A stretch of DNA of 64,000 nucleotides from a virus, in IMG/VR virus record IMGVR_UViG_3300002026_000045, positions 32,001 through 96,000 of that record; one strand, given 5' to 3'. The notes under the pieces were generated by a model. The model did not search any database, had not been told where the DNA came from, and saw only the letters and a program-made list of their open reading frames with translations. The number at the start of each line of letters is the position of its first letter. Position 1 is the first letter of the stretch. Below are positions 4,753 to 63,440 of this stretch, in pieces. Position numbers and translations under genes: made by a program.

Positions 4753-6909
4753 TTATGACTCTTTTACTATACTAATAATCTCGCCACGATTGAGATTCTC
4801 TCCTGCCATTTTTGCTTCTGCATAGTCCCTTGCAGATACTGCTGCCTGCGTGTGATCAGCAAAATCTATAAACCATCTGCCCCATGGTCTCTGAGGTGGC
4901 TGTGCTGTTTGCTGCGGTGGTGCCGCTGGTTGTGGTTCATTTATACGATGTGGCACAACCTCAAATTCTTGTTGCACTACATTATGCCCATTGCTAGTCA
5001 ACCATCCAGCAGCCATGCGGTTTGCATCACGTTGGGTAGTTGGACCATTTAAAATATGTACTAAATTTCCTTGCTCGTCCATAATATCCCACGCATGCTC
5101 CCCTACATTTGTCAAATTAGGGGCTGTTGGTTCAATATATTTTTTTATTGCAATTGCCTTCATTGCATTGTCTGGGGCGTCAATGTCGCGTATCCCCCAT
5201 TCTTTACGGGCTACTATTTTCGCTTCATCAGCAGACGTTGCAACTACTTCAATGGAAGAAGCATGGCCAGCAATTGAAACTTTATACCAATATTTTTCAC
5301 CAGCCTCTGGGTTTCTTTCTGTTTTGCGCTGAAGTTGAACTTGTTTGACAAAACTGCGCAAAGCCGCAGCTGGCAATTCTCCAGCTGCATATTGAGCAAA
5401 ATATTTTATTGTGTCATCACCGCTGCTAGATGGCGCAAGCATTAAATATAATTTTTTTAAATATTCATTCCTTGATTTTTGTGGATCACATGCTGCATCT
5501 AACGCAACTACCATTCGAAGTAAGGTAGGCTCAATTTTATCATAAAACTTGCCAAGCCAATCATCCCCAGGGCTACGAAATTCAACATACCCTTCTTTAT
5601 TGTTAATACTGGTATATTTGTCAGTGCTGCCACTGTGAATTGCCCTACTAGCAAGTTTGTTTAGACCAGCCCGCATCTTGTCCATCATTGGCTGGGCCAA
5701 TTCAGGTCTCATTCTTGCATACCGTTTAACTTGATCCAACCCAGACTTGCAATATGTATTTGCTTCTCTCTCAAATTGTTCTAAAACGTATTGGTCCCCA
5801 AGCAAGATGGCAAGTTTAACATAATCTAAATTACTCTCGCTCATACCAGGTACACTTACATTTATGTGTAACCCAGTTGACGAGTTAGTGTAACAGCCCT
5901 GGCTATCTGCCCATGCTTTGACTTTCTTTAAGTCCGACAACATCTCTGGCAATGGAAGTGGAGGGCTAACAAATTCAACCCCACCATCACTTGAATCCTC
6001 AGGCTCATCTAAACTCGAGTCTGGCTCAACCACATACGAAACATCGTTACGTTTAGCGCCATGATATCTGTCACTTGACGCAACTGGACGCCCAATCATA
6101 CTCTCAAACTCTTTTGCAATGTCGTCAAATGACCTACTGCCGCCCCCACCACCTGAACTGTAGTGTGGCCAATCTATAGCAATCCAATCAGCGTCACACA
6201 CGTCAGTCATATTAACTAGTCCAACGTCTCTGAGCCAGTCTCGTTCTTCAGGATATGACCAATCTTCGCGGTAATCTTCTAACGCATAATCGTAAGTTCG
6301 ACCTTCAAGTTCCCATTCTTCCTCAACCATTTCTTCTAACTTAGCGTCGGCCGCGGAACACGCGGCTCTCCAATGTTTTTCATCGTCACTGTTGTAAGTT
6401 ACCTCTCCCGCGACGCGATTGTATTTTCTAGCATTGATTTGAATCCCTACTTTTTCAGCACGATTCTTCTCGTCATCACTTAGGCCCAAATCCTCTAATG
6501 CAATAGTTATTGCTTCATTTTCATCCCACAGCGAATTGTTTACTATATAGTCTCTGAGCGCGTCTTTCCCTTCATTTCTCCATTCTCTGTGAAATTCTTC
6601 GTCTGCCCATTCATAGTATCGCTCCTCTAACTTTTCTCTCATTCGTTGAATAGCATTTCCACTGTTCATACTTGTTTCGTCATTTGAGAAAAATTCAACT
6701 ATGTCGTCTATGCTGTTGGCACGTTCATCCATGTCATAATTTGGCTCGTACTCATCACCACCGTCATTGTCTGACTCAGTGTCTGGGACATACATCTCAA
6801 ATTCCATCCCAACATAGGCATCAATTGATGCAGCCATGCGTCGCAATGAGGCAGGCCCCATTGCGAGTTCGCTTAAAAGTTGTGGTTCTACAAATTGTTC
6901 TGCTCGCAT
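4753..6909 (-). CDS. Putative amidoligase (COOH-NH2 ligase type 2)
   Basis: GMEFE, PDSSL, EFVSPP, STGLHINV, KYTSIN, VEFRSPG motifs; variant leader MRAEQFVE..LLSE. Confidence 0.8.
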   Translation of the reverse strand: MRAEQFVEPQLLSELAMGPASLRRMAASIDAYVGMEFEMYVPDTESDNDGGDEYEPNYDMDERANSIDDIVEFFSNDETSMNSGNAIQRMREKLEERYYEWADEEFHREWRNEGKDALRDYIVNNSLWDENEAITIALEDLGLSDDEKNRAEKVGIQINARKYNRVAGEVTYNSDDEKHWRAACSAADAKLEEMVEEEWELEGRTYDYALEDYREDWSYPEERDWLRDVGLVNMTDVCDADWIAIDWPHYSSGGGGGSRSFDDIAKEFESMIGRPVASSDRYHGAKRNDVSYVVEPDSSLDEPEDSSDGGVEFVSPPLPLPEMLSDLKKVKAWADSQGCYTNSSTGLHINVSVPGMSESNLDYVKLAILLGDQYVLEQFEREANTYCKSGLDQVKRYARMRPELAQPMMDKMRAGLNKLASRAIHSGSTDKYTSINNKEGYVEFRSPGDDWLGKFYDKIEPTLLRMVVALDAACDPQKSRNEYLKKLYLMLAPSSSGDDTIKYFAQYAAGELPAAALRSFVKQVQLQRKTERNPEAGEKYWYKVSIAGHASSIEVVATSADEAKIVARKEWGIRDIDAPDNAMKAIAIKKYIEPTAPNLTNVGEHAWDIMDEQGNLVHILNGPTTQRDANRMAAGWLTSNGHNVVQQEFEVVPHRINEPQPAAPPQQTAQPPQRPWGRWFIDFADHTQAAVSARDYAEAKMAGENLNRGEIISIVKES

Positions 6910-15270: not shown

Positions 15271-15582
15271 TTAAACTTGGATGTTTACTATTGCACTTTG
15301 TTCTTGCTGTTGTTTAATAAAACGCTGCACATCTTTATATATTTGCAAGGATGCTTCAGATGGAATTTGAAGTTCAACTTCATGAGTTACCGAATTTGTG
15401 TACTTCATTACAGTAACCGGAGGGTCTTTACTCATTTCATAAGTTCTATTAATTTGAGCAGGCGACCGATTTATGTCAGGCGACACTTTTTCAACTGCCA
15501 ACGTTGCTGGTGACAGTTTATTGATTATGTGATTAACTAATGTTGCTGCATTTGGTGCAGTAGGTATTTGGTTTAATTGCAT
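15271..15582 (-). CDS. flaG: FlaG-like flagellar protein
   Basis: TVMKYTNSVTHEVELQIPSEASLQI resembles FlaG VVKV.D..TGEVIRQIPSEE.L; directly after flagellin; GGAGG RBS. Confidence 0.7.
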   Translation of the reverse strand: MQLNQIPTAPNAATLVNHIINKLSPATLAVEKVSPDINRSPAQINRTYEMSKDPPVTVMKYTNSVTHEVELQIPSEASLQIYKDVQRFIKQQQEQSAIVNIQV

Positions 15583-15601
15583 GTTGCACCTCCATTAAAT
15601 T

Positions 15602-15624
15602 AGTGGCCAGTAATACTGGCCACT
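15602..15624 (-). terminator. GC-rich hairpin between flagellin and flaG (terminator/attenuator or mRNA stabiliser)
   Basis: Inverted repeat AGTGGCCAGTA-a-TACTGGCCACT. Confidence 0.6.
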
Positions 15625-15629
15625 TTTAC

Positions 15630-16451
15630 TTATCTAATTAAACTAAGCAAATATTGTGGGAATTGATTGACAATTCCTAACGTAGACGACATGAGTTGTT
15701 GCCTGCTTTGTAGCAATGACAATTGATTTGACAATTCTGCAACATCAGCGTCCTCAATTGAAGAAATTGAACTCTTTAGTGAGAGCTGAGTTGTAGCAAC
15801 ATTTTCAGCAGTCTTTTTCAATCCTGAAATCTGAGAGCCAATAATTGCCTGGTTTGTTCCAACAGTAGCAGAGGCAGTGTCAAGAGCAGTCATTGCGGCA
15901 GCCGCTTTTGTCGCGTCAGTAAGATCGATTGTGGCAGCATCAATATTCAAAGTAGCGCCGTCTGATTTTGCAGTAGCAATTGTTCTTGTATCACCAGAGT
16001 TGATGCCAGTTTGAATGTCTACGGATGCAGCCGCAGCACCAATTAAATTTTGACCAAACAATTTTGCACTGTTAGCAGTATTGTCTAATTGTTTTTGCAG
16101 TTCAGCAAAAGAACTTTGCAGTGCTGTGCGTTGATCTGCAGATAACAACGATGATGATGCTTGCGTAGCCAAATCCTTCATCTGTGTAATGATAGACTGC
16201 TGGGAGTCTAATGCGCCGTCAGCAACAGACAATAACGATTGTCCTGCACTAATATTCTTAGTTACAGCATTGTAACTTGATTGCTGCATTTTAAGAGATG
16301 ACAAGATAGCCATACCTGCAGGGTCGTCAGATGCAGACAAAATACGCTTGCCAGAACTAATCTGTGCAGATACTTTTTGTAATTGAGTAGCGTTGTCGTT
16401 TAAATTGCGAGCAATAGACGAAGCTAATGTGTTGGAGTTTAGTGATAACAT
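15630..16451 (-). CDS. fliC: Flagellin (minimal D0/D1, 273 aa)
   Basis: ISSGKRILSASDDPAGMAI, DQRTALQSSFAEL, C-terminal SSIEDADVAE...NQFPQYLLSLIR. Confidence 0.92.
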   Translation of the reverse strand: MLSLNSNTLASSIARNLNDNATQLQKVSAQISSGKRILSASDDPAGMAILSSLKMQQSSYNAVTKNISAGQSLLSVADGALDSQQSIITQMKDLATQASSSLLSADQRTALQSSFAELQKQLDNTANSAKLFGQNLIGAAAASVDIQTGINSGDTRTIATAKSDGATLNIDAATIDLTDATKAAAAMTALDTASATVGTNQAIIGSQISGLKKTAENVATTQLSLKSSISSIEDADVAELSNQLSLLQSRQQLMSSTLGIVNQFPQYLLSLIR

Positions 16452-16541
16452 GATGGTTCCTTTAATATAAGAAACCGCATAGTTAAATGTGGCGGATTAT
16501 TACATCCTAATTGATAACAGAAGTTACTCTGTTAAAAATAT

Positions 16542-16868
16542 TTATCCTTCTAATGACAATACTGTAGAAATAAAACCAATTTCGTCATTAAAAGTTATTG
16601 GTGACTGATGAATTAACACTTTGGCAGTCGCTACCTTAACGAGCAACTTTGTAAAAAATTTGCTGAATATTGCAAATTCATCTGGTGGCAATGATTCGTT
16701 TAAATTGTCGCATACATACTCTAATACCTCAGCAATGTTGGCTAATGACGACAATCTAACTGCTTTGGAATTGGATGTAGTCTGAGCAATAAGCAAATGC
16801 TTTTTAATTCCAACAAACAATTGATTAGACAATTGTTGTTTGGACATTTGTTCTTGGTACGCAATCAT
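16542..16868 (-). CDS. fliS: FliS-like flagellin export chaperone
   Basis: AYQ..S..QL..QLF.G...L..A; four-helix pattern; immediately upstream of flagellin. Confidence 0.6.
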   Translation of the reverse strand: MIAYQEQMSKQQLSNQLFVGIKKHLLIAQTTSNSKAVRLSSLANIAEVLEYVCDNLNESLPPDEFAIFSKFFTKLLVKVATAKVLIHQSPITFNDEIGFISTVLSLEG

Positions 16869-17452
16869 AAATTTGCTTCTTCTTCTTGTGTTAAGTAATA
16901 CCCTTTTTCTTCAGCATGGGTATCGCACAACGTTCGTATCCAGCCGCCGCCTCTACTACGACCTACTGCGCCACAAATTTCGCAAGTCACAGATGACATT
17001 GATTCAGCCATTGAGATTAGCCCGTCAGTGAACTCGTTGCCACCGCTAACATAAAACCGCAATGCACCAAATTTCTCTTTGACTTGTGACACTACTACCT
17101 GCTCAACAACTGGTCTAATTTGTGTATCTGGCGCACGTAATAGTAGCTCTTTTTTATATTTCTCTAACGTAGACGGAGGTAATGATAGGTCAGCATAATA
17201 CTCATTAAATGGCCCCCAATCACCTGCTACCGCTGATGCTCTGCGATGCTCTGTTGCAAGATCATATGCGTTAGATTTTACACTTGAGTCAATGTGCCAT
17301 TGAATATTGCTGCATAGCTTGTCAATGATATGATACCAACCATCTTCACAATCAAACCCCCAGCACATACACGTTTCTGTCATGTCTGCATGGCGATTTT
17401 TAAAAAGCAATGGATATTTTGTGCAAAGTTTATTATCTAATTCTGGGCTCAT
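16865..17452 (-). CDS. Conserved phage hypothetical protein
   Basis: DGWY.II..L, QVKEKFGALRFY, CEICG, WIRTLC. Confidence 0.75.
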   Translation of the reverse strand: MSPELDNKLCTKYPLLFKNRHADMTETCMCWGFDCEDGWYHIIDKLCSNIQWHIDSSVKSNAYDLATEHRRASAVAGDWGPFNEYYADLSLPPSTLEKYKKELLLRAPDTQIRPVVEQVVVSQVKEKFGALRFYVSGGNEFTDGLISMAESMSSVTCEICGAVGRSRGGGWIRTLCDTHAEEKGYYLTQEEEANL

Positions 17453-17760: not shown

Positions 17761-17996
17761 AAAAATTTCTCATCTGGATCAGCGAACGGGCACTCAAACA
17801 TAAACCCTTGGAACTTATCTCCCCAGCCAGCAGCCGTATGCTTTAAATCTGATTTAGTAGGATAGTGGCGCAAAAGTGACGCGGCACGATGCCTAATATG
17901 TTTAGGCAGTCCAGGCGTCACTTTAGAGTCTGCTAAGTTCTTTAAGAAAATTTCAGTCTCTATAACTGCATTTGATCGTTCAAACGGTAGAGTCAT
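17757..17996 (-). CDS. BPSL0761-like protein
   Basis: MTLP.ER.NAV....FL..L....P..IR.RA..LLRHYP. Confidence 0.7.
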   Translation of the reverse strand: MTLPFERSNAVIETEIFLKNLADSKVTPGLPKHIRHRAASLLRHYPTKSDLKHTAAGWGDKFQGFMFECPFADPDEKFL

Positions 17997-18441
17997 ATCC
18001 CCACCCGTTGGCTTTTATTAGCTTAGACTTAACTCTGACATTAGGCTGCCTATGCTTTTTAGTGTCAGTAAATCCCATCATAACGCCAACCTCTGCGACT
18101 GCGCCGCTGCGGCACAACCCTGCGTGACAGTGCACGACGACATTCATGTCTTTTTCTAGTGCATGCTTCAGCAATCTCACAATCTCAACTGCTTGTGCAT
18201 CTTGAATCTTTGTTTCGTCTGGAAATTCACACTCGTTTTCCGCGTCAAGAAATTCAAAGTGATGGACTTCCCTAAACTGGTTGTATGGATTAATTACCCA
18301 CCCTGCTGGGTCGGTAATTTGAATAAGCATGCTATTATCACCAGCGTCTTTGTGACAACCATTGGCAACATCTGCTGCCGCAACATTTTGTATCCAGGCC
18401 ATTATGCAAACTCCACTTGTTGATCTGAGATAAGATTCCAA
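17980..18441 (-). CDS. Protein tyrosine/dual-specificity phosphatase-like protein
   Basis: VHCHAGLCRSGA (CX5R); true start probably MAWIQN. Confidence 0.85.
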   Translation of the reverse strand: MESYLRSTSGVCIMAWIQNVAAADVANGCHKDAGDNSMLIQITDPAGWVINPYNQFREVHHFEFLDAENECEFPDETKIQDAQAVEIVRLLKHALEKDMNVVVHCHAGLCRSGAVAEVGVMMGFTDTKKHRQPNVRVKSKLIKANGWGYDSTV

Positions 18442-29116: not shown

Positions 29117-31288
29117 TTAAGTTGATGTTTTGCGAAGATATTCAGCAATTTGCTCTTGCTCAGTAGGGTTAAGATCATCTATGTCATATTCCCCATTGCC
29201 TACTTTTTCTACTAACAACTTTATATATTCTTCGTCATACGCAAATGCGTCAGTATTGGTTTTATCAATTTCAATCCAACGTGTGCCTACCCACTTAAAC
29301 AACTTGCTTGGCAAAAAGTCTACTCGTAAAAACAAATCTCCACGAATTGGGTTAGATGGAAATTGAGTCCCAAAACTTGCATTGCCACCCATTGGGAATG
29401 TGTCTACTTTTGCAGTAAAATCTGGTAAACTTACTGTTTTTTTGCTTGGTAGTAACGGACCTGACGCAAGAACGTGTGGTGGCTGTACATGTGCAATAAC
29501 CTTTTCTTCCATTGGTTCAACTGGCTGTTCTACCACTGGCGGTGCAATTTCTACCTCATCAAATTGAGCAATAATTTCAGGTGGGGTAACTTCAACTGGT
29601 GGAAGTTCTACAACTTCTTCAATTACTTCTTCAATTATTGGCTCAACTACTGGCAAAATTTCTTCTATTTCTGCTACAGCTTGTGCTTCTTGTTTAATGA
29701 AGTATTTTGGCTTATCGTAAAAATAAACTGCCTCGAACGCTTTTTTTGCCACTTCAGGATTAGTTAATGTTCCACTCAGTGGCTGTTCTTCAATTATCAG
29801 CTCTACTACAGGTTCTACTACAGGAGCAACTTCTTCATTAACTTCAACTGGCGGGGCAATTTCGGTAATAAAATCTGAATAATCAATGTCATCGCTACTT
29901 GCTGCGAATGCTGTATCTGCTATAGTAACAGTCACAGGCATAGCATCAAGTTTAGTTTTTTCTACCGTATTTGTTAATTCTGCAATGAGAGAGGTAAGTT
30001 GTGAAATAGTATTTGACGATGTTGCTAATTTACTATCAAGTTTTGCTATCGCAGCAGACAACCCTTGCCGCTCCATTGTCGCAGTCTCTTTTGCTGACGC
30101 TAATTCTTGCTCAACTGTTGCCTTTAACGCTACTAACTCATCATACTCAGAAATAAGAACTGCCAATTCTTTAGTTAGTGTTTCATTTTCAGATAAGTGC
30201 GCGGAGCATTCTTCTTCTATTGCTGATTTTTCTTTTGACAAATCGTCAGACAATTTTAATATATCTGCAAGCACTAAATTAGCTGCCAATAACTCTTGTG
30301 TGGCTTTTTCTTTGGCAATAATTTGCTCTTGGATAATGGCGTCACGAAGTTTTTGCTCTGCCTCATTAGATTCAGCTGCAATAGCAGAGAACCTATTCCA
30401 TTCATCTAGTTTAACTTTTTCGTACTCAGCAGCACATTCTGCTTTGGTTACTTCAATAGCATTGTGCACTTTTTGTTGAATATTTATTTCAAGCTCTGCT
30501 ATATCTTCTTCTTCATCTATTCGTTTTCTATCAATTTTAGACCAGTCGATAGACGTAGTTGCAGCTAGGATAAGGACAATAGCAAGCGGGTCAAACACAA
30601 ACACAATAATAATAATGACCCATCTTACTGCGTCTTCTAACATATTTTGATCGGCGTTGTTTCCATAAATTAACGCTGCTATGTATTTTATAGGTCCAAC
30701 CTCTGCTTCAACTTTGCGATACTGACTAGCAATAGGTGCCCGTTTCTCTTGAAGGACTGCAATTTCTTTTTGTGCTAAATCTATGTCACCCTGTAACTTA
30801 GCTCGTTCCTTTTGCTGTGATCTACGAAGATTTGCTGCCTTAGTAGCTCCTGTTTCATCAGTAGTACGCGCAAGTAATTGATCCACTGCGCCATCCATCT
30901 GCACTAATGCCTTGCGGGATGCATCAATATTATCTCGTTGCGTTTTTATTTTCTCATCAAACAATGATACTTGTGCTTGAATATCACCAGTTGGGGTTGC
31001 TTGATCTAAGTGAGCTTTACTTAGGTAACCAAAAATGCCCATGCTTGTAATTAGCATTAGCACACCAACCGCAGTAACAAGGTACGCTTTTATCTTATAC
31101 GAAGCCCGATCCCAGTTATAGTGTAGCCACAATGTTGTCACTACTTTGCCTGCTTCCAATACTGCACCCATGGTGACGATTGGCCAGAAGGCACCTGCGA
31201 AAATTGCAGTTAAACCTACTATGCTGTAATACGCTGCGATGCCAGATATGCAAAGAGCAGTGAGAAGAGTTGTAAAACCTAGAAACAT
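29117..31288 (-). CDS. Membrane protein with long coiled coil and Glu/Pro/Val-rich linker
   Basis: 3 N-terminal TM helices plus one after the coiled coil; conserved-looking C-terminus FGTQFP..P..GDLFLRVD. Confidence 0.75.
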   Translation of the reverse strand: MFLGFTTLLTALCISGIAAYYSIVGLTAIFAGAFWPIVTMGAVLEAGKVVTTLWLHYNWDRASYKIKAYLVTAVGVLMLITSMGIFGYLSKAHLDQATPTGDIQAQVSLFDEKIKTQRDNIDASRKALVQMDGAVDQLLARTTDETGATKAANLRRSQQKERAKLQGDIDLAQKEIAVLQEKRAPIASQYRKVEAEVGPIKYIAALIYGNNADQNMLEDAVRWVIIIIVFVFDPLAIVLILAATTSIDWSKIDRKRIDEEEDIAELEINIQQKVHNAIEVTKAECAAEYEKVKLDEWNRFSAIAAESNEAEQKLRDAIIQEQIIAKEKATQELLAANLVLADILKLSDDLSKEKSAIEEECSAHLSENETLTKELAVLISEYDELVALKATVEQELASAKETATMERQGLSAAIAKLDSKLATSSNTISQLTSLIAELTNTVEKTKLDAMPVTVTIADTAFAASSDDIDYSDFITEIAPPVEVNEEVAPVVEPVVELIIEEQPLSGTLTNPEVAKKAFEAVYFYDKPKYFIKQEAQAVAEIEEILPVVEPIIEEVIEEVVELPPVEVTPPEIIAQFDEVEIAPPVVEQPVEPMEEKVIAHVQPPHVLASGPLLPSKKTVSLPDFTAKVDTFPMGGNASFGTQFPSNPIRGDLFLRVDFLPSKLFKWVGTRWIEIDKTNTDAFAYDEEYIKLLVEKVGNGEYDIDDLNPTEQEQIAEYLRKTST

Positions 31289-31888: not shown

Positions 31889-32080
31889 TCACCCCAATGT
31901 AAATTTCCGTAAGTATTCGCTGGCGTCTGACACGTCTAAGTCCGCATCCCAAATCTCGTTGTCTTGCGCATCCTGGATTAAAAAATCAGTGCCTGGATGC
32001 GTGTTAGCAAAAGTCGGCACTTTGGCAATAAGCCCAATGGATATCAAATATCCAAGCAATTCTCTGTCTTTGTCATTCAT
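31889..32080 (-). CDS. Hypothetical protein
   Basis: GAGG RBS. Confidence 0.5.
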   Translation of the reverse strand: MNDKDRELLGYLISIGLIAKVPTFANTHPGTDFLIQDAQDNEIWDADLDVSDASEYLRKFTLG

Positions 32081-51139: not shown

Positions 51140-52969
51140 CTATACTGCTAACACGTTAGTAGGACTGTCAGGACGTCCTACTGAAATTGCCACTACATTC
51201 GTAGGGCTGTCTGGTCGGCTTATTGAAATAGCCACTACGTTAGTAGGAACGTCTGGCACTGCGATTGGCAGTGCAGTTGGTGCCCTATCACCTACTAAAG
51301 TTCTGCTAGTTAATTTTAGCACAGCATGCTTATGTAGTAACGTAGTTTTATATTTTAATTCTACCGTATTAGTATTTAGCGTCGGTAGTAAAGTAACCCC
51401 AACATCATTAGTTTCTACATAATCATCTGAAAAGATAACTGTTGATCCAATTGTAGAAATATGAATAGTGCCATTACGTTGCTCATCACCACGCAGAATT
51501 GAGTATTCTAAAATAGTAGGGTAGTCCGCAAAACCAACTACACTAGCTAACGTAGATGTAGATAAGTTGTCAGACAATTGAATGTCAACTCCACCAACTG
51601 AGTACTGTTTACCTAGCATAGTTCTGCCGTCTGACAGAGTTGCAAAACTTGCTCTACCGTTTAACTTAATCGCCGGAACAGTTGATGCAGCAGATCTGTC
51701 AACCATGTCGCCAATGCTATAGCAATTATTTCCACCTAAACTAACAATAGGAGTTACATCTACGTTTGTAGATAATCCCTTGCCAACATTTGTAAAAGTG
51801 TTAAATGCGCTTACAACGTGAGACACCCCACCATAAAAACTTGCCTCGCCATAGATTGCTTCAGCTGCAATATTAGAAAATGTTGATCCAGTTACTTTGA
51901 TTGAAGTTGGGAATGGAGCACCATCATTGCTTTGACCTAAATTTAACCCTCGATACAATCTATCAAACGAGCAATTAGCAAACGTAACATTCTCAACTTT
52001 GCTGTCAGCATAATATGCGTACACCTTACCAGAAAAATCACATTCTGTAAACACTAATCTTTCTGAAGAAACAGCATTGGTTTGTGACGACGCCATGCGA
52101 ACACAAGTTTGTGGATTTGGACTAGCACCAACTGACGTTGGACTAGCTGTATCAGATCCGTAAAAACCAACTCGGGTAAACCTTACATCAGTAACAGTGT
52201 TAAGATACATGATGTCTTTGTTGTTAATATTAACTAACGACAAATCTTCTATCTCTGCATACCCTGGCATTATTGCAGGTGGGCTACCAGAGCCAACTAT
52301 ATTTGAATCTATTGTAGTTGCGTTAACAAAATCGTAAGTAAACCCAGTATGCAACTTTGAATCACATGAACTGATCAGGCACGGTTGAGTAGAATCAACT
52401 TGAATCAAAAATGTCGAGTTTTTGCCATCACCTTTAAGGCGTACATACGGCATCAATCGTATGAAATCACCAAATATTAAATAAGTACCTGCAGGAATAT
52501 GTATTGTTCTGCGTGTTCTAGCTTCAGTGCCAAGTAACGATGCTTTATACAGCTCAATAATTGCACGGTTAATAGATCGAACTTCAAGAAGTCCATCACC
52601 TTCACCATTGCCTGATGTATCATGTAACTTGCTATCCCCTATCCCACCAAAATCACGTAAATTAGCAAAGTCATCAAACTTATCTTGCATTGACCGTGTA
52701 GTAGGAGACAACGTGCTTAGACCAGTCAGTGCAATGTAACCAGCAGCCAGTCCTTTAAACGTGTAAACACCACTTAGACTAAAAATATCGCTGTATTGAG
52801 TTAAGATTTCAGTATTACCAAGGCTTGGAGCACCTTCTTCCGTAGTACCATTGCCAATGTATAACTTTCGAGTATCTATTGCCCAGCCTAATTCAGCACT
52901 TGCTAACTGCGGTAGGTCTTCTTGTAGTCCTCTACGGTGTTGTATGCGTGAGATTTGAATTATCGCCAA
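51140..52969 (-). CDS. Virion structural protein with beta-helix (pectin-lyase-like) region
   Basis: QISRIQHRRG...LYIGNG N-terminus; DFGGIGD, IPAGTY, LKGDG; periodic beta-helix repeats. Confidence 0.75.
   Translation of the reverse strand: MAIIQISRIQHRRGLQEDLPQLASAELGWAIDTRKLYIGNGTTEEGAPSLGNTEILTQYSDIFSLSGVYTFKGLAAGYIALTGLSTLSPTTRSMQDKFDDFANLRDFGGIGDSKLHDTSGNGEGDGLLEVRSINRAIIELYKASLLGTEARTRRTIHIPAGTYLIFGDFIRLMPYVRLKGDGKNSTFLIQVDSTQPCLISSCDSKLHTGFTYDFVNATTIDSNIVGSGSPPAIMPGYAEIEDLSLVNINNKDIMYLNTVTDVRFTRVGFYGSDTASPTSVGASPNPQTCVRMASSQTNAVSSERLVFTECDFSGKVYAYYADSKVENVTFANCSFDRLYRGLNLGQSNDGAPFPTSIKVTGSTFSNIAAEAIYGEASFYGGVSHVVSAFNTFTNVGKGLSTNVDVTPIVSLGGNNCYSIGDMVDRSAASTVPAIKLNGRASFATLSDGRTMLGKQYSVGGVDIQLSDNLSTSTLASVVGFADYPTILEYSILRGDEQRNGTIHISTIGSTVIFSDDYVETNDVGVTLLPTLNTNTVELKYKTTLLHKHAVLKLTSRTLVGDRAPTALPIAVPDVPTNVVAISISRPDSPTNVVAISVGRPDSPTNVLAV
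51143..51259 (-). repeat. Three 14-aa (42-nt) FN3 strand-A repeats at C-terminus
   Basis: VPDVPTNVVAISIS / RPDSPTNVVAISVG / RPDSPTNVLAV*. Confidence 0.9.
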
Positions 52970-62489: not shown

Positions 62490-62577
62490 AAGTTTTCCTT
62501 TGTTTTAAAATAAGCTCCTTAAAGAAGCCAGAATAATATTTACCTCACCAAACTGGTTTAGTTATATTATGTTATCG

Positions 62578-62601
62578 AAAAAGATAGGGCCGAAGCCCTA
62601 T
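62578..62601 (-). terminator. Terminator closing tmRNA transcript
   Basis: ATAGGGC-TTCG-GCCCTAT-CTTTTT. Confidence 0.85.
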
Positions 62602-63010
62602 ACTTTTGATTATGTTGGTTTACAAGGCCTTTTCTGCCCCGCTGGTTTCGCTGTTTAGGCGAAAGCTGCTTCAGTTGCAGCAACTTTGGAACCGCCGAAA
62701 CGGAAGCCTTTAGCTACTGTCATCTTCACACCAGATGTTACATTTGCGTTTGCATTTGCTTTGGTTTTGCTTTTTCGACTAGGTTACCCCAATCCTACGG
62801 CTTTCACATTGCCGAGCGATAAAATCCGTACTTAGTGTTTGGGCGATTCCGGATGTGCCCCATCAAAAACACACTGCCAATTAGTCTTTCGACATTATCT
62901 GAAACGACCTGGCATATGACCCCCAGGCTCAATGTGTTGTTGGTGGAGCACAGGAGATTCGAACTCCTTTGTCAACCACTGTTCTCTATTTTACTTTACG
63001 CTGTTACTAA
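62602..63010 (-). ncRNA. ssrA: Circularly permuted (two-piece) tmRNA
   Basis: T-arm AGGAG-TTCGAAT-CTCCT + GTGCTCC-A-CCA ending 62941 precedes 5' strand GGGGCAC (62861-62855; G3.U70); tag ORF 62759-62655; adjacent smpB. Confidence 0.88.
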
Positions 63011-63014
63011 CTAT

Positions 63015-63440
63015 TTATGCTATCTTTTGGCTCTTCACAATTCTTCTGTTATCTAGGTCAATATCACGATTCTTTGTTGTCTCGCGTTTATCATATTCCT
63101 TTTTGCCTCGGGCAACCCCAATTGACAATTTAAACTTGCCGTTCTTTTGGTAAATACGTAACGGAACTAAGGTTAACCCTTTCTCTTTCACTTTACCAAC
63201 TAACCGTGCAATTTCTTTCTTATGCAGCAACAACGTTCGTGACCGTTGCATGTCATTATCTGACGACCCAATGTTTGCCCCAACTAATATTACTACATCG
63301 TCTTTAATTATACAATGCGATCCTGCGATAGAGCAAGAGTTCTGAGCAATCGCTTTAACTTCCCAAGCCTCAAGTTTCATGCCGCTCTCATATTCTTCAA
63401 TAATTTCATAATCAAAAAATGCTTTTTTATTGGATATCAT
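63015..63440 (-). CDS. smpB: SsrA-binding protein
   Basis: NKKAFFDYEI.E..E.G..L..WEVKA, R.LLLHKKEI, GLTLVPL, GKKEYDKRET; start probably ATG 63440. Confidence 0.95.
   Translation of the reverse strand: MISNKKAFFDYEIIEEYESGMKLEAWEVKAIAQNSCSIAGSHCIIKDDVVILVGANIGSSDNDMQRSRTLLLHKKEIARLVGKVKEKGLTLVPLRIYQKNGKFKLSIGVARGKKEYDKRETTKNRDIDLDNRRIVKSQKIA

Follow-up and report, generated by a model that had tools for sequence, protein, structure and literature searches.

A flagellin gene with FliS-like and FlaG-like partners in a clade of large T4-like phages

A stretch of 64,000 nucleotides from the IMG/VR virus record IMGVR_UViG_3300002026_000045 (positions 32,001 to 96,000 of that record), which we call the window, carries three adjoining genes for a FliS-like chaperone, a minimal flagellin and a FlaG-like protein (Table 1). 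We argue that the phage most likely feeds its own flagellin subunit into the swimming filament of its host during infection, and we hold this with a confidence only a little better than even. An earlier note, made from the letters of the sequence without database searches, had described the locus as a minimal flagellin flanked by FliS-like and FlaG-like open reading frames (ORFs) among phage genes, and that description stands. It can now be taken further. The comparisons below indicate that the module is old and shared across a clade of T4-like jumbo phages, that a compact FlgK-like gene can stand in place of its third gene, and that the leader of the flagellin gene is structured and conserved.

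The middle ORF reads unambiguously as a flagellin with both polymerisation ends complete. Pfam Flagellin_N (PF00669) matches it at E 7.7e-27, with 94.5 bits against a cut-off of 26.6, and Flagellin_C (PF00700) at E 8.6e-12 and 45.7 bits, where the cut-off is 23. Over residues 3-272 the protein aligns with filament subunits of known structure that are 270-276 aa long, the best of them being Caulobacter FljL (9cem, E 1.9e-21). Since these subunits align almost end to end, the protein is a minimal flagellin of the D0-D1 type. It ends in LSLIR, and an LxL(I/L)(R/K) end is conserved in the 16 genes compared.

The 108-aa ORF upstream of flagellin has neither a Pfam nor a PHROG match, which is why we name it FliS-like rather than a member of Pfam FliS (PF02561), whose threshold it does not reach. 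One of 14 FliS-like relatives scores against that family (E 0.085), and a profile of the 14 has no match among PDB sequences. AlphaFold2, run on the alignment of these relatives, gives a four-helix bundle with a predicted local distance difference test (pLDDT) score of 90.6. Foldseek against the PDB returns FliS for 8 of the 10 best matches to this model, the top one being 6gow_E with a template modelling (TM) score of 0.74. By VIA-align the eight best matches are all FliS at Z 14.5-10.9, and generic bundles reach 10.5 at most; the Z of 14.5 comes with a root-mean-square deviation of 4.6 A over 106 residues, and Z 12.7-10.9 with 2.1-2.7 A over 95-103 residues. A helical bundle at such Z values is suggestive of FliS. 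When the profile of the FliS-like family is run against all ORFs of 80 bacterial flagellin loci there is a single match (E 0.0058), and that ORF is Pfam FliS at 6.7e-30. An hhalign comparison with about 60 bacterial FliS proteins gives a probability of 62.6% (E 7.2e-5) with 93 columns in register.

It is also worth considering the residues that a FliS would need. Bacterial FliS docks into the cleft of FlhA by way of Y7 and Y10 (PMC11536152). An N-terminal tyrosine is present in 13 of the 14 FliS-like proteins (12 aligned, and one more found by eye in the locus L009), and in the window protein it is Tyr4. A complex predicted for the flagellin C-terminus with the FliS-like protein scored 0.38 against 0.22 for a control, which gives no verdict and is used neither way. 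Fold, position and key residue fit, and although the Pfam threshold is not reached we call the ORF FliS-like, as the earlier note had proposed.

The 103-aa ORF downstream of flagellin is, judged by its family profile, evidently a divergent FlaG. The window protein alone stays under the cut-off of Pfam FlaG (PF03646; E 0.009, 16.6 bits against 23.8), but the family profile finds bona fide bacterial FlaG. It matches nine bacterial ORFs at E 2.3e-7 to 0.03, mostly directly after flagellin genes, and the four that were checked are all Pfam FlaG at 1e-21 to 1e-23. Two relatives pass Pfam FlaG in their own right (L015 at E 2.9e-12 and L010 at E 1.1e-5). In the PDB the top match of the profile is B. 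subtilis YvyC (2hc5, E 0.016). The structural model has a pLDDT of 61 and is too poor for a structure search; its three predicted strands and C-terminal helix are compatible with FlaG. Both flanking ORFs therefore fit the identities first proposed for them.

The third position of the module is FlaG-like in the window, L006 and L015 by profile search, and L010 and L116 also carry a FlaG-like gene by Pfam. In 12 related loci the position is held by a FlgK-like gene. The usual FlgK is much longer than this compact protein of 340 aa, which matches Pfam Flg_bb_rod and Flg_bbr_C and, weakly, FlgK_D1. A FlgK-like gene was not found on the window's contig. FlaG has been described in one role only, as a competitor of FliS-flagellin complexes at the FlhA gate (PMC11536152). 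The presence of a FlaG-like protein therefore points to an export route rather than to a use of flagellin in the cytoplasm or the virion.

The window is part of a single virus record of 104,158 bp with a CheckV completeness of 55%. Its proteins include rIIA, a class II ribonucleotide reductase and a NadR-like protein. Outside the window the same contig encodes an RnlA-like RNA ligase, a DNA ligase and collagen-like tail-fibre genes. These genes bear out the phage surroundings of the original description, and by gene content the carrier appears to be a large T4-like phage. G+C is even at 38-42%. The stretch is present in four samples, all from one microbial-mat study. Contigs of the four samples cover the module and its flanks with zero differences and at even depth. 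They span flagellin, the FliS-like gene and the next phage gene on one side, and the FlaG-like gene and the downstream phage genes on the other, which answers the concern of the earlier note that the locus could be a chimera with bacterial DNA. A DNA search of a cultured-phage collection gave no match, and a protein search of it gave four fragmentary records only, at 31-37% identity.

The same flagellin is found in many other phages. It has 116 relatives, which are 40-86% identical or more and 226-407 aa long, mostly 271-275 aa. Members of the clade lie on 16 IMG/VR viral contigs, among them one of 318 kb (91% complete) and one of 328 kb with terminal repeats (100% complete). Over 20 viral or metagenome contigs carry the module next to phage genes that they share, and related loci have further genes in common with the window's contig. 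A capsid protein of T4 type, Gp23, is encoded in the genomes of the relatives (matches at E 1e-81 to 1e-145), and we take these relatives, on their sequences, to be T4-like jumbo phages. In three of them flagellin lies 39-80 kb from Gp23 and among small accessory genes. The FliS-like gene adjoins flagellin in 22 of the 22 related loci that hold the flank, as it does in the window. That the chaperone is kept beside flagellin in every relative backs the argument, already made in the earlier note, that its retention speaks for function.

No FliD was found in the five related records searched, two of which are the 91% and 100% complete ones. A FliD_C match in these records (E 0.002) was under the cut-off and was taken as noise, as was a second Flagellin_N match in the 318-kb relative (E 0.0097). 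Two FliS-like relatives have faint matches to Pfam FlaF (E ~0.1) that are far under threshold. One member of the clade (L120:642-1862) encodes a flagellin of 406 aa in which an insert separates the conserved ends, so variation in the surface domain is explored within the phage clade too.

The question is then whether this flagellin came recently from a bacterium. Identity scans covered one genome per prokaryote species, plus metagenomes. Clade members are at least 45% identical, and the best others among the matches listed reach 35% (species genomes) and 38% (metagenomes). In a sample of 400 genomes drawn from the class that surrounds the nearest bacterial locus, identity reached 33-34% at most. 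FastTree, run on 187 flagellins, places the clade in a single group with a Shimodaira-Hasegawa-like (SH-like) support of 87, and zero rows from the species genomes fall inside it. Its sister, across a long branch, is a pair of true bacterial flgA-flgM-flagellin loci. For the flagellin gene the ratio of nonsynonymous to synonymous substitution rates (dN/dS) is 0 at dS 0.016 and 0.06, and about 0.17-0.21 at dS 0.13-0.17. Between the window and L113 it is 0.10, a comparison in which dS is saturated. The identity gap, the single clade and a dN/dS of 0-0.2 together argue that the module is old, has been passed down within phages and is kept by purifying selection. Random capture, which the earlier note had thought the poorer explanation, is disfavoured by the same dN/dS values and by the separate phage clade in the tree.

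The nearest bacterial branch consists of L048 (1-5319) and L158, which are about 31-33% identical to the phage flagellin. The contig of L048 is binned to a metagenome-assembled genome of an uncultured betaproteobacterium. It has four tandem ORFs of flagellin size, and the two that were checked are flagellins.

The flagellin gene is preceded by what looks like a phage promoter. A TAAATA-type motif had been reported to overlap the fliS stop, and it is there as ATAAATA. This motif is promoter-like: it behaves as a T4 late-type element would, being strand-specific, intergenic and placed just before genes. The contig has 29 copies on the coding strand and 8 on the other strand. Intergenic sequence makes up 6% of the total and is touched by 23 of the 29 coding-strand copies, and for 24 of the 29 a gene begins no more than 120 nt away. 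The 7 full TATAAATA copies all lie between genes. In most relatives ATAAATA is also found upstream of flagellin. No sigma-28 promoter had been apparent to the earlier note, and reading the 94-nt leader by eye shows no -10 element of that type (CGATAA). The genes marked by ATAAATA include large ORFs, for example 51140-52969, 29117-31288 and 4753-6909. The motif probably marks a late regulon that takes in several large ORFs.

The leader between this motif and the flagellin start is the longest among 24 motif-gene pairs, and it folds with a z-score of -3.76 against shuffled sequences. Hairpin 1, whose loop is GUAAUA or GUAACA, is 100% paired in 10 sequences against 27-55% in slid controls, and 3 of its 4 pairs change on both sides; the 10 sequences were chosen by eye, and six leaders of the clade are without that motif. 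For hairpin 2 the comparison covers 7 distinct sequences: 4 of its 6 pairs are altered on both sides, and 87.8% of cells are paired. RNAalifold predicts both hairpins independently. Hairpins with a GUAAYN loop number 11 genome-wide against 6.5 expected, and we rejected them as a general element of the genome; apart from the two of the flagellin leader, none stands before a gene. Single-sequence folds of 16455-16476 (minus strand) offer a switch-like alternative in which the 3' arm of hairpin 2 pairs with the ribosome-binding site (GGUUUCUU with AAGGAACC). Burial of this site is seen in most single folds, yet its mean unpaired probability is 0.48 against 0.56 for shuffled sequences, and 3 of 16 leaders are at 10/100 or less, so a switch is not claimed. 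Directly after the flagellin stop there is a stem-loop, and a strong hairpin stands at the same position in most relatives. On the coding strand this stem-loop is without the T-run of a canonical intrinsic terminator.

Table 1. Coordinates of the module, its genes and its signals (window numbering unless a related locus is named)
Feature	Position	Strand	Basis and remarks
Three-ORF module	15271-16868	minus	FliS-like, flagellin and FlaG-like genes, all at coordinates named beforehand
FliS-like putative chaperone gene, 108 aa	16542-16868	minus	Predicted fold, profile and position; start overlaps stop of a 195-aa ORF (ATGA)
ATAAATA, T4 late-promoter type	16539-16545	minus	Overlaps FliS-like stop; 94 nt before flagellin ATG
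Further GUAAC-loop hairpin	16515-16534	minus	In flagellin leader
Leader hairpin 1, 4-bp stem, loop GUAAUA	16494-16507	minus	Covariation and RNAalifold
Leader hairpin 2, loop UUUAACU	16475-16492	minus	Covariation and RNAalifold
Minimal flagellin gene, 273 aa, D0-D1 type	15630-16451	minus	Pfam and alignment with solved filaments
Stem-loop, 10 pairs (6 G-C)	15602-15624	minus	Directly after flagellin stop, ahead of FlaG-like gene
FlaG-like gene, 103 aa	15271-15582	minus	Family profile; own GGAGG ribosome-binding site
Compact FlgK-like genes of relatives	L001:10864-11886, L005:10860-11882, and ten other loci		After phage flagellin

We propose the following scenario for what the module does. Flagellin would be transcribed from the phage's own ATAAATA promoter of T4 late type, and a phage promoter would make its supply independent of the host's hierarchy of flagellar sigma factors. 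The FliS-like protein would keep flagellin monomeric by way of its C-terminal helix and would dock at the host export gate, FlhA. Flagellin would then be exported by the type III secretion system of the host flagellum and would polymerise on host hooks or filaments under the host cap. The host cap would be needed because no phage FliD was found. At the same gate the FlaG-like protein may tune the amount of flagellin exported. Many relatives have a compact FlgK-like junction protein in the third position instead. The conserved hairpins of the long leader may provide post-transcriptional control of flagellin synthesis. The net effect would be that the infected cell retains its filament or alters it. 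One can imagine two pay-offs for the phage. Motility might be sustained after host genes are shut off. Alternatively, the filament might go unrecognised by phages that bind flagella, whether these are competitors or the phage's own progeny, which would then not be trapped. The remodelling or poisoning of the filament, the exclusion of flagellotropic phages and the decoy role that the earlier note had put forward are things that we would infer at most.

Several points weigh against this scenario. Members of the clade are known from their genes alone, and expression, secretion and incorporation into a filament are what we infer from them. No bacterial flagellin found is more than about 35-38% identical to that of the phage, which bears on the compatibility of the phage subunit with the host. 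The bacterial comparison is itself the best among the matches listed in two scans, and the support for the clade in FastTree is an SH-like 87. The FliS-like protein lies below the Pfam FliS threshold, its profile-profile probability is just 62.6%, and four-helix bundles are common. Late timing is argued solely from the likeness of the motif to that of T4. A lytic phage may also leave little time for a filament to grow.

One can imagine a scenario where the flagellin is made but is not built into a filament, and acts within the cell or at the gate. It could jam or saturate FlhA, or titrate FliW-CsrA or FlbT-FlaF, so that host export is shut or its regulation is rewired and energy is saved for the phage. 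FlaG does antagonise the delivery of flagellin at FlhA (PMC11536152). The promoter motif, a strong ribosome-binding site and the 3' hairpin suggest that flagellin is strongly expressed, and the lack of a cap gene in the five related records suits a protein that is not assembled. The two FliS-like relatives with faint FlaF matches could be cited too, but those matches are far under threshold. However, a blocker does not need a complete flagellin, and yet both polymerisation ends are conserved across a clade that has diverged to 45% identity. The FlgK-like junction protein of 12 relatives makes sense for assembly only. We consider this explanation unlikely.

Another route would dispense with host secretion altogether. 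T4-like jumbo phages might have taken over flagellin as building material, for a fibre on the virion or within the cell. The FliS-like protein would solubilise flagellin and block its premature polymerisation, the FlgK-like protein of relatives would nucleate a filament or the FlaG-like protein would regulate it, and the filament would be made by the phage without type III secretion. The late-type motif is also found at large genes that are probably structural, the chaperone gene is always retained, no FliD was found in the five related records, and the flagellins of the clade are far from every bacterial flagellin found among the matches listed. Against this, FlaG is not known to act anywhere but at the export gate (PMC11536152), and the tyrosine by which FliS docks at FlhA is retained. 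The flagellin gene also sits among small accessory genes far from Gp23 in the three relatives where the distance is known, and the ordinary D0-D1 layout of exported subunits is kept. We regard a phage-built filament as quite improbable. The remaining possibility, that the assembly is chimeric with bacterial DNA or that a host operon was captured recently and is non-functional, may come to mind because flagellar genes are unexpected in a phage and the record is a metagenome assembly about 55% complete, but it is largely refuted and scarcely credible given the bridging contigs of four samples with even depth and no differences, the recurrence of the module on more than 20 viral or metagenome contigs including a genome complete by its terminal repeats, the uniform G+C, the low dN/dS, the lack of any bacterial flagellin above 38% identity among the matches listed, and a phage promoter motif in place of a host promoter.

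There is a precedent for a phage subunit in a host filament. FRphi, a temperate gut phage of Enterobacter, encodes a flagellin, FliC_P, that replaces the host subunit in the filament, and it has been called the first known prophage-encoded flagellin (PMC13418256). FRphi is a siphovirus that acts in lysogens, where TldR (derived from TnpB) and a guide RNA silence host fliC; FliS is not mentioned there (PMC13418256). The likeness is that each phage carries its own flagellin. In contrast to FRphi, the carrier here is a large T4-like phage with rIIA, and its flagellin is minimal, has a dedicated chaperone and a FlaG or FlgK as partners, and is preceded by a phage promoter motif and a structured leader. 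A TldR-type gene is not apparent near it: no ORF of at least 250 aa lies within about 4 kb of flagellin (none between 11087 and 24534), and the neighbours that were scanned are without such domains. In the literature searched on flagellin in jumbo, huge or T4-like phages there is no description of the cassette, and FRphi is the sole published phage flagellin that we found.

The same three types of protein are linked in the flagellin-flaG-fliD-fliS operons of bacteria with polar flagella (for example Campylobacter, Vibrio and Pseudomonas), and in yvyC-fliD-fliS of B. subtilis. As in bacterial filament loci, the phage has FlaG directly after flagellin and retains the FliS tyrosine for FlhA. Unlike those operons, the phage cassette is without fliD, has the chaperone upstream of flagellin and has no apparent sigma-28 or sigma-54 promoter. 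Its small proteins have diverged past the Pfam thresholds, and all the copies found are on viral or short metagenome contigs. The Caulobacter flagellins FljJ to FljO (270-273 aa; 9cem, 8uxn, 6xky) have the same length and the same D0-D1-only layout, and no other solved structures match the phage protein better in sequence. The similarity is significant, if distant, and in Caulobacter the genes lie on the chromosome under the control of FlbT and FlaF. A parallel in function may be psbA of cyanophages. A lytic phage there supplies a part with a high turnover, and the host machine runs on after host expression stops. The analogy is functional only, as the machine is a different one, and the corresponding benefit of the flagellin cassette is one that we presume.

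Where FRphi was presented as a case of lysogenic conversion, the cassette instead appears to be kept by an old and diversified lineage of large T4-like environmental phages. It would amount to a self-contained filament kit that has a subunit, a dedicated chaperone and either a gate regulator or a junction protein, with a phage promoter motif and an RNA leader of its own. If the phage flagellin is indeed exported, control of host motility or of the identity of the flagellar surface during lytic infection would be a widespread phage strategy. It would bear on competition between phages at the flagellum and on the behaviour of infected cells in mats and lakes. It would also bear on how much divergence flagellin, FliS and FlaG tolerate while still using the host export gate.

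It must be noted that other genes of the window lie close to the module or may say something of the host. Rfam gives no match in the window at gathering scores, and this includes a permuted two-piece transfer-messenger RNA (tmRNA) that ARAGORN places at 62564-63034 on the minus strand, with a tag peptide ending in AATEAAFA. This two-piece tmRNA might be a hint to the host lineage. A 195-aa ORF (16865-17452, minus strand) ends in an overlap with the start of the FliS-like gene, and a TAAATA precedes it. Its family is phage-only, widespread and hypothetical (Atlas score 0.98, structure TM 0.89), and L006 has a homologue placed two genes upstream of its module. Since the family is hypothetical and has no flagellar link, we set the ORF aside as a member of the module. 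A 153-aa ORF (17980-18441, minus strand), 1.1 kb upstream of the module, has signatures of a dual-specificity or tyrosine phosphatase (Pfam Tc-R-P, E 2.7e-6; phrog_5614), and a homologue of it is found near flagellin in the relative L014.

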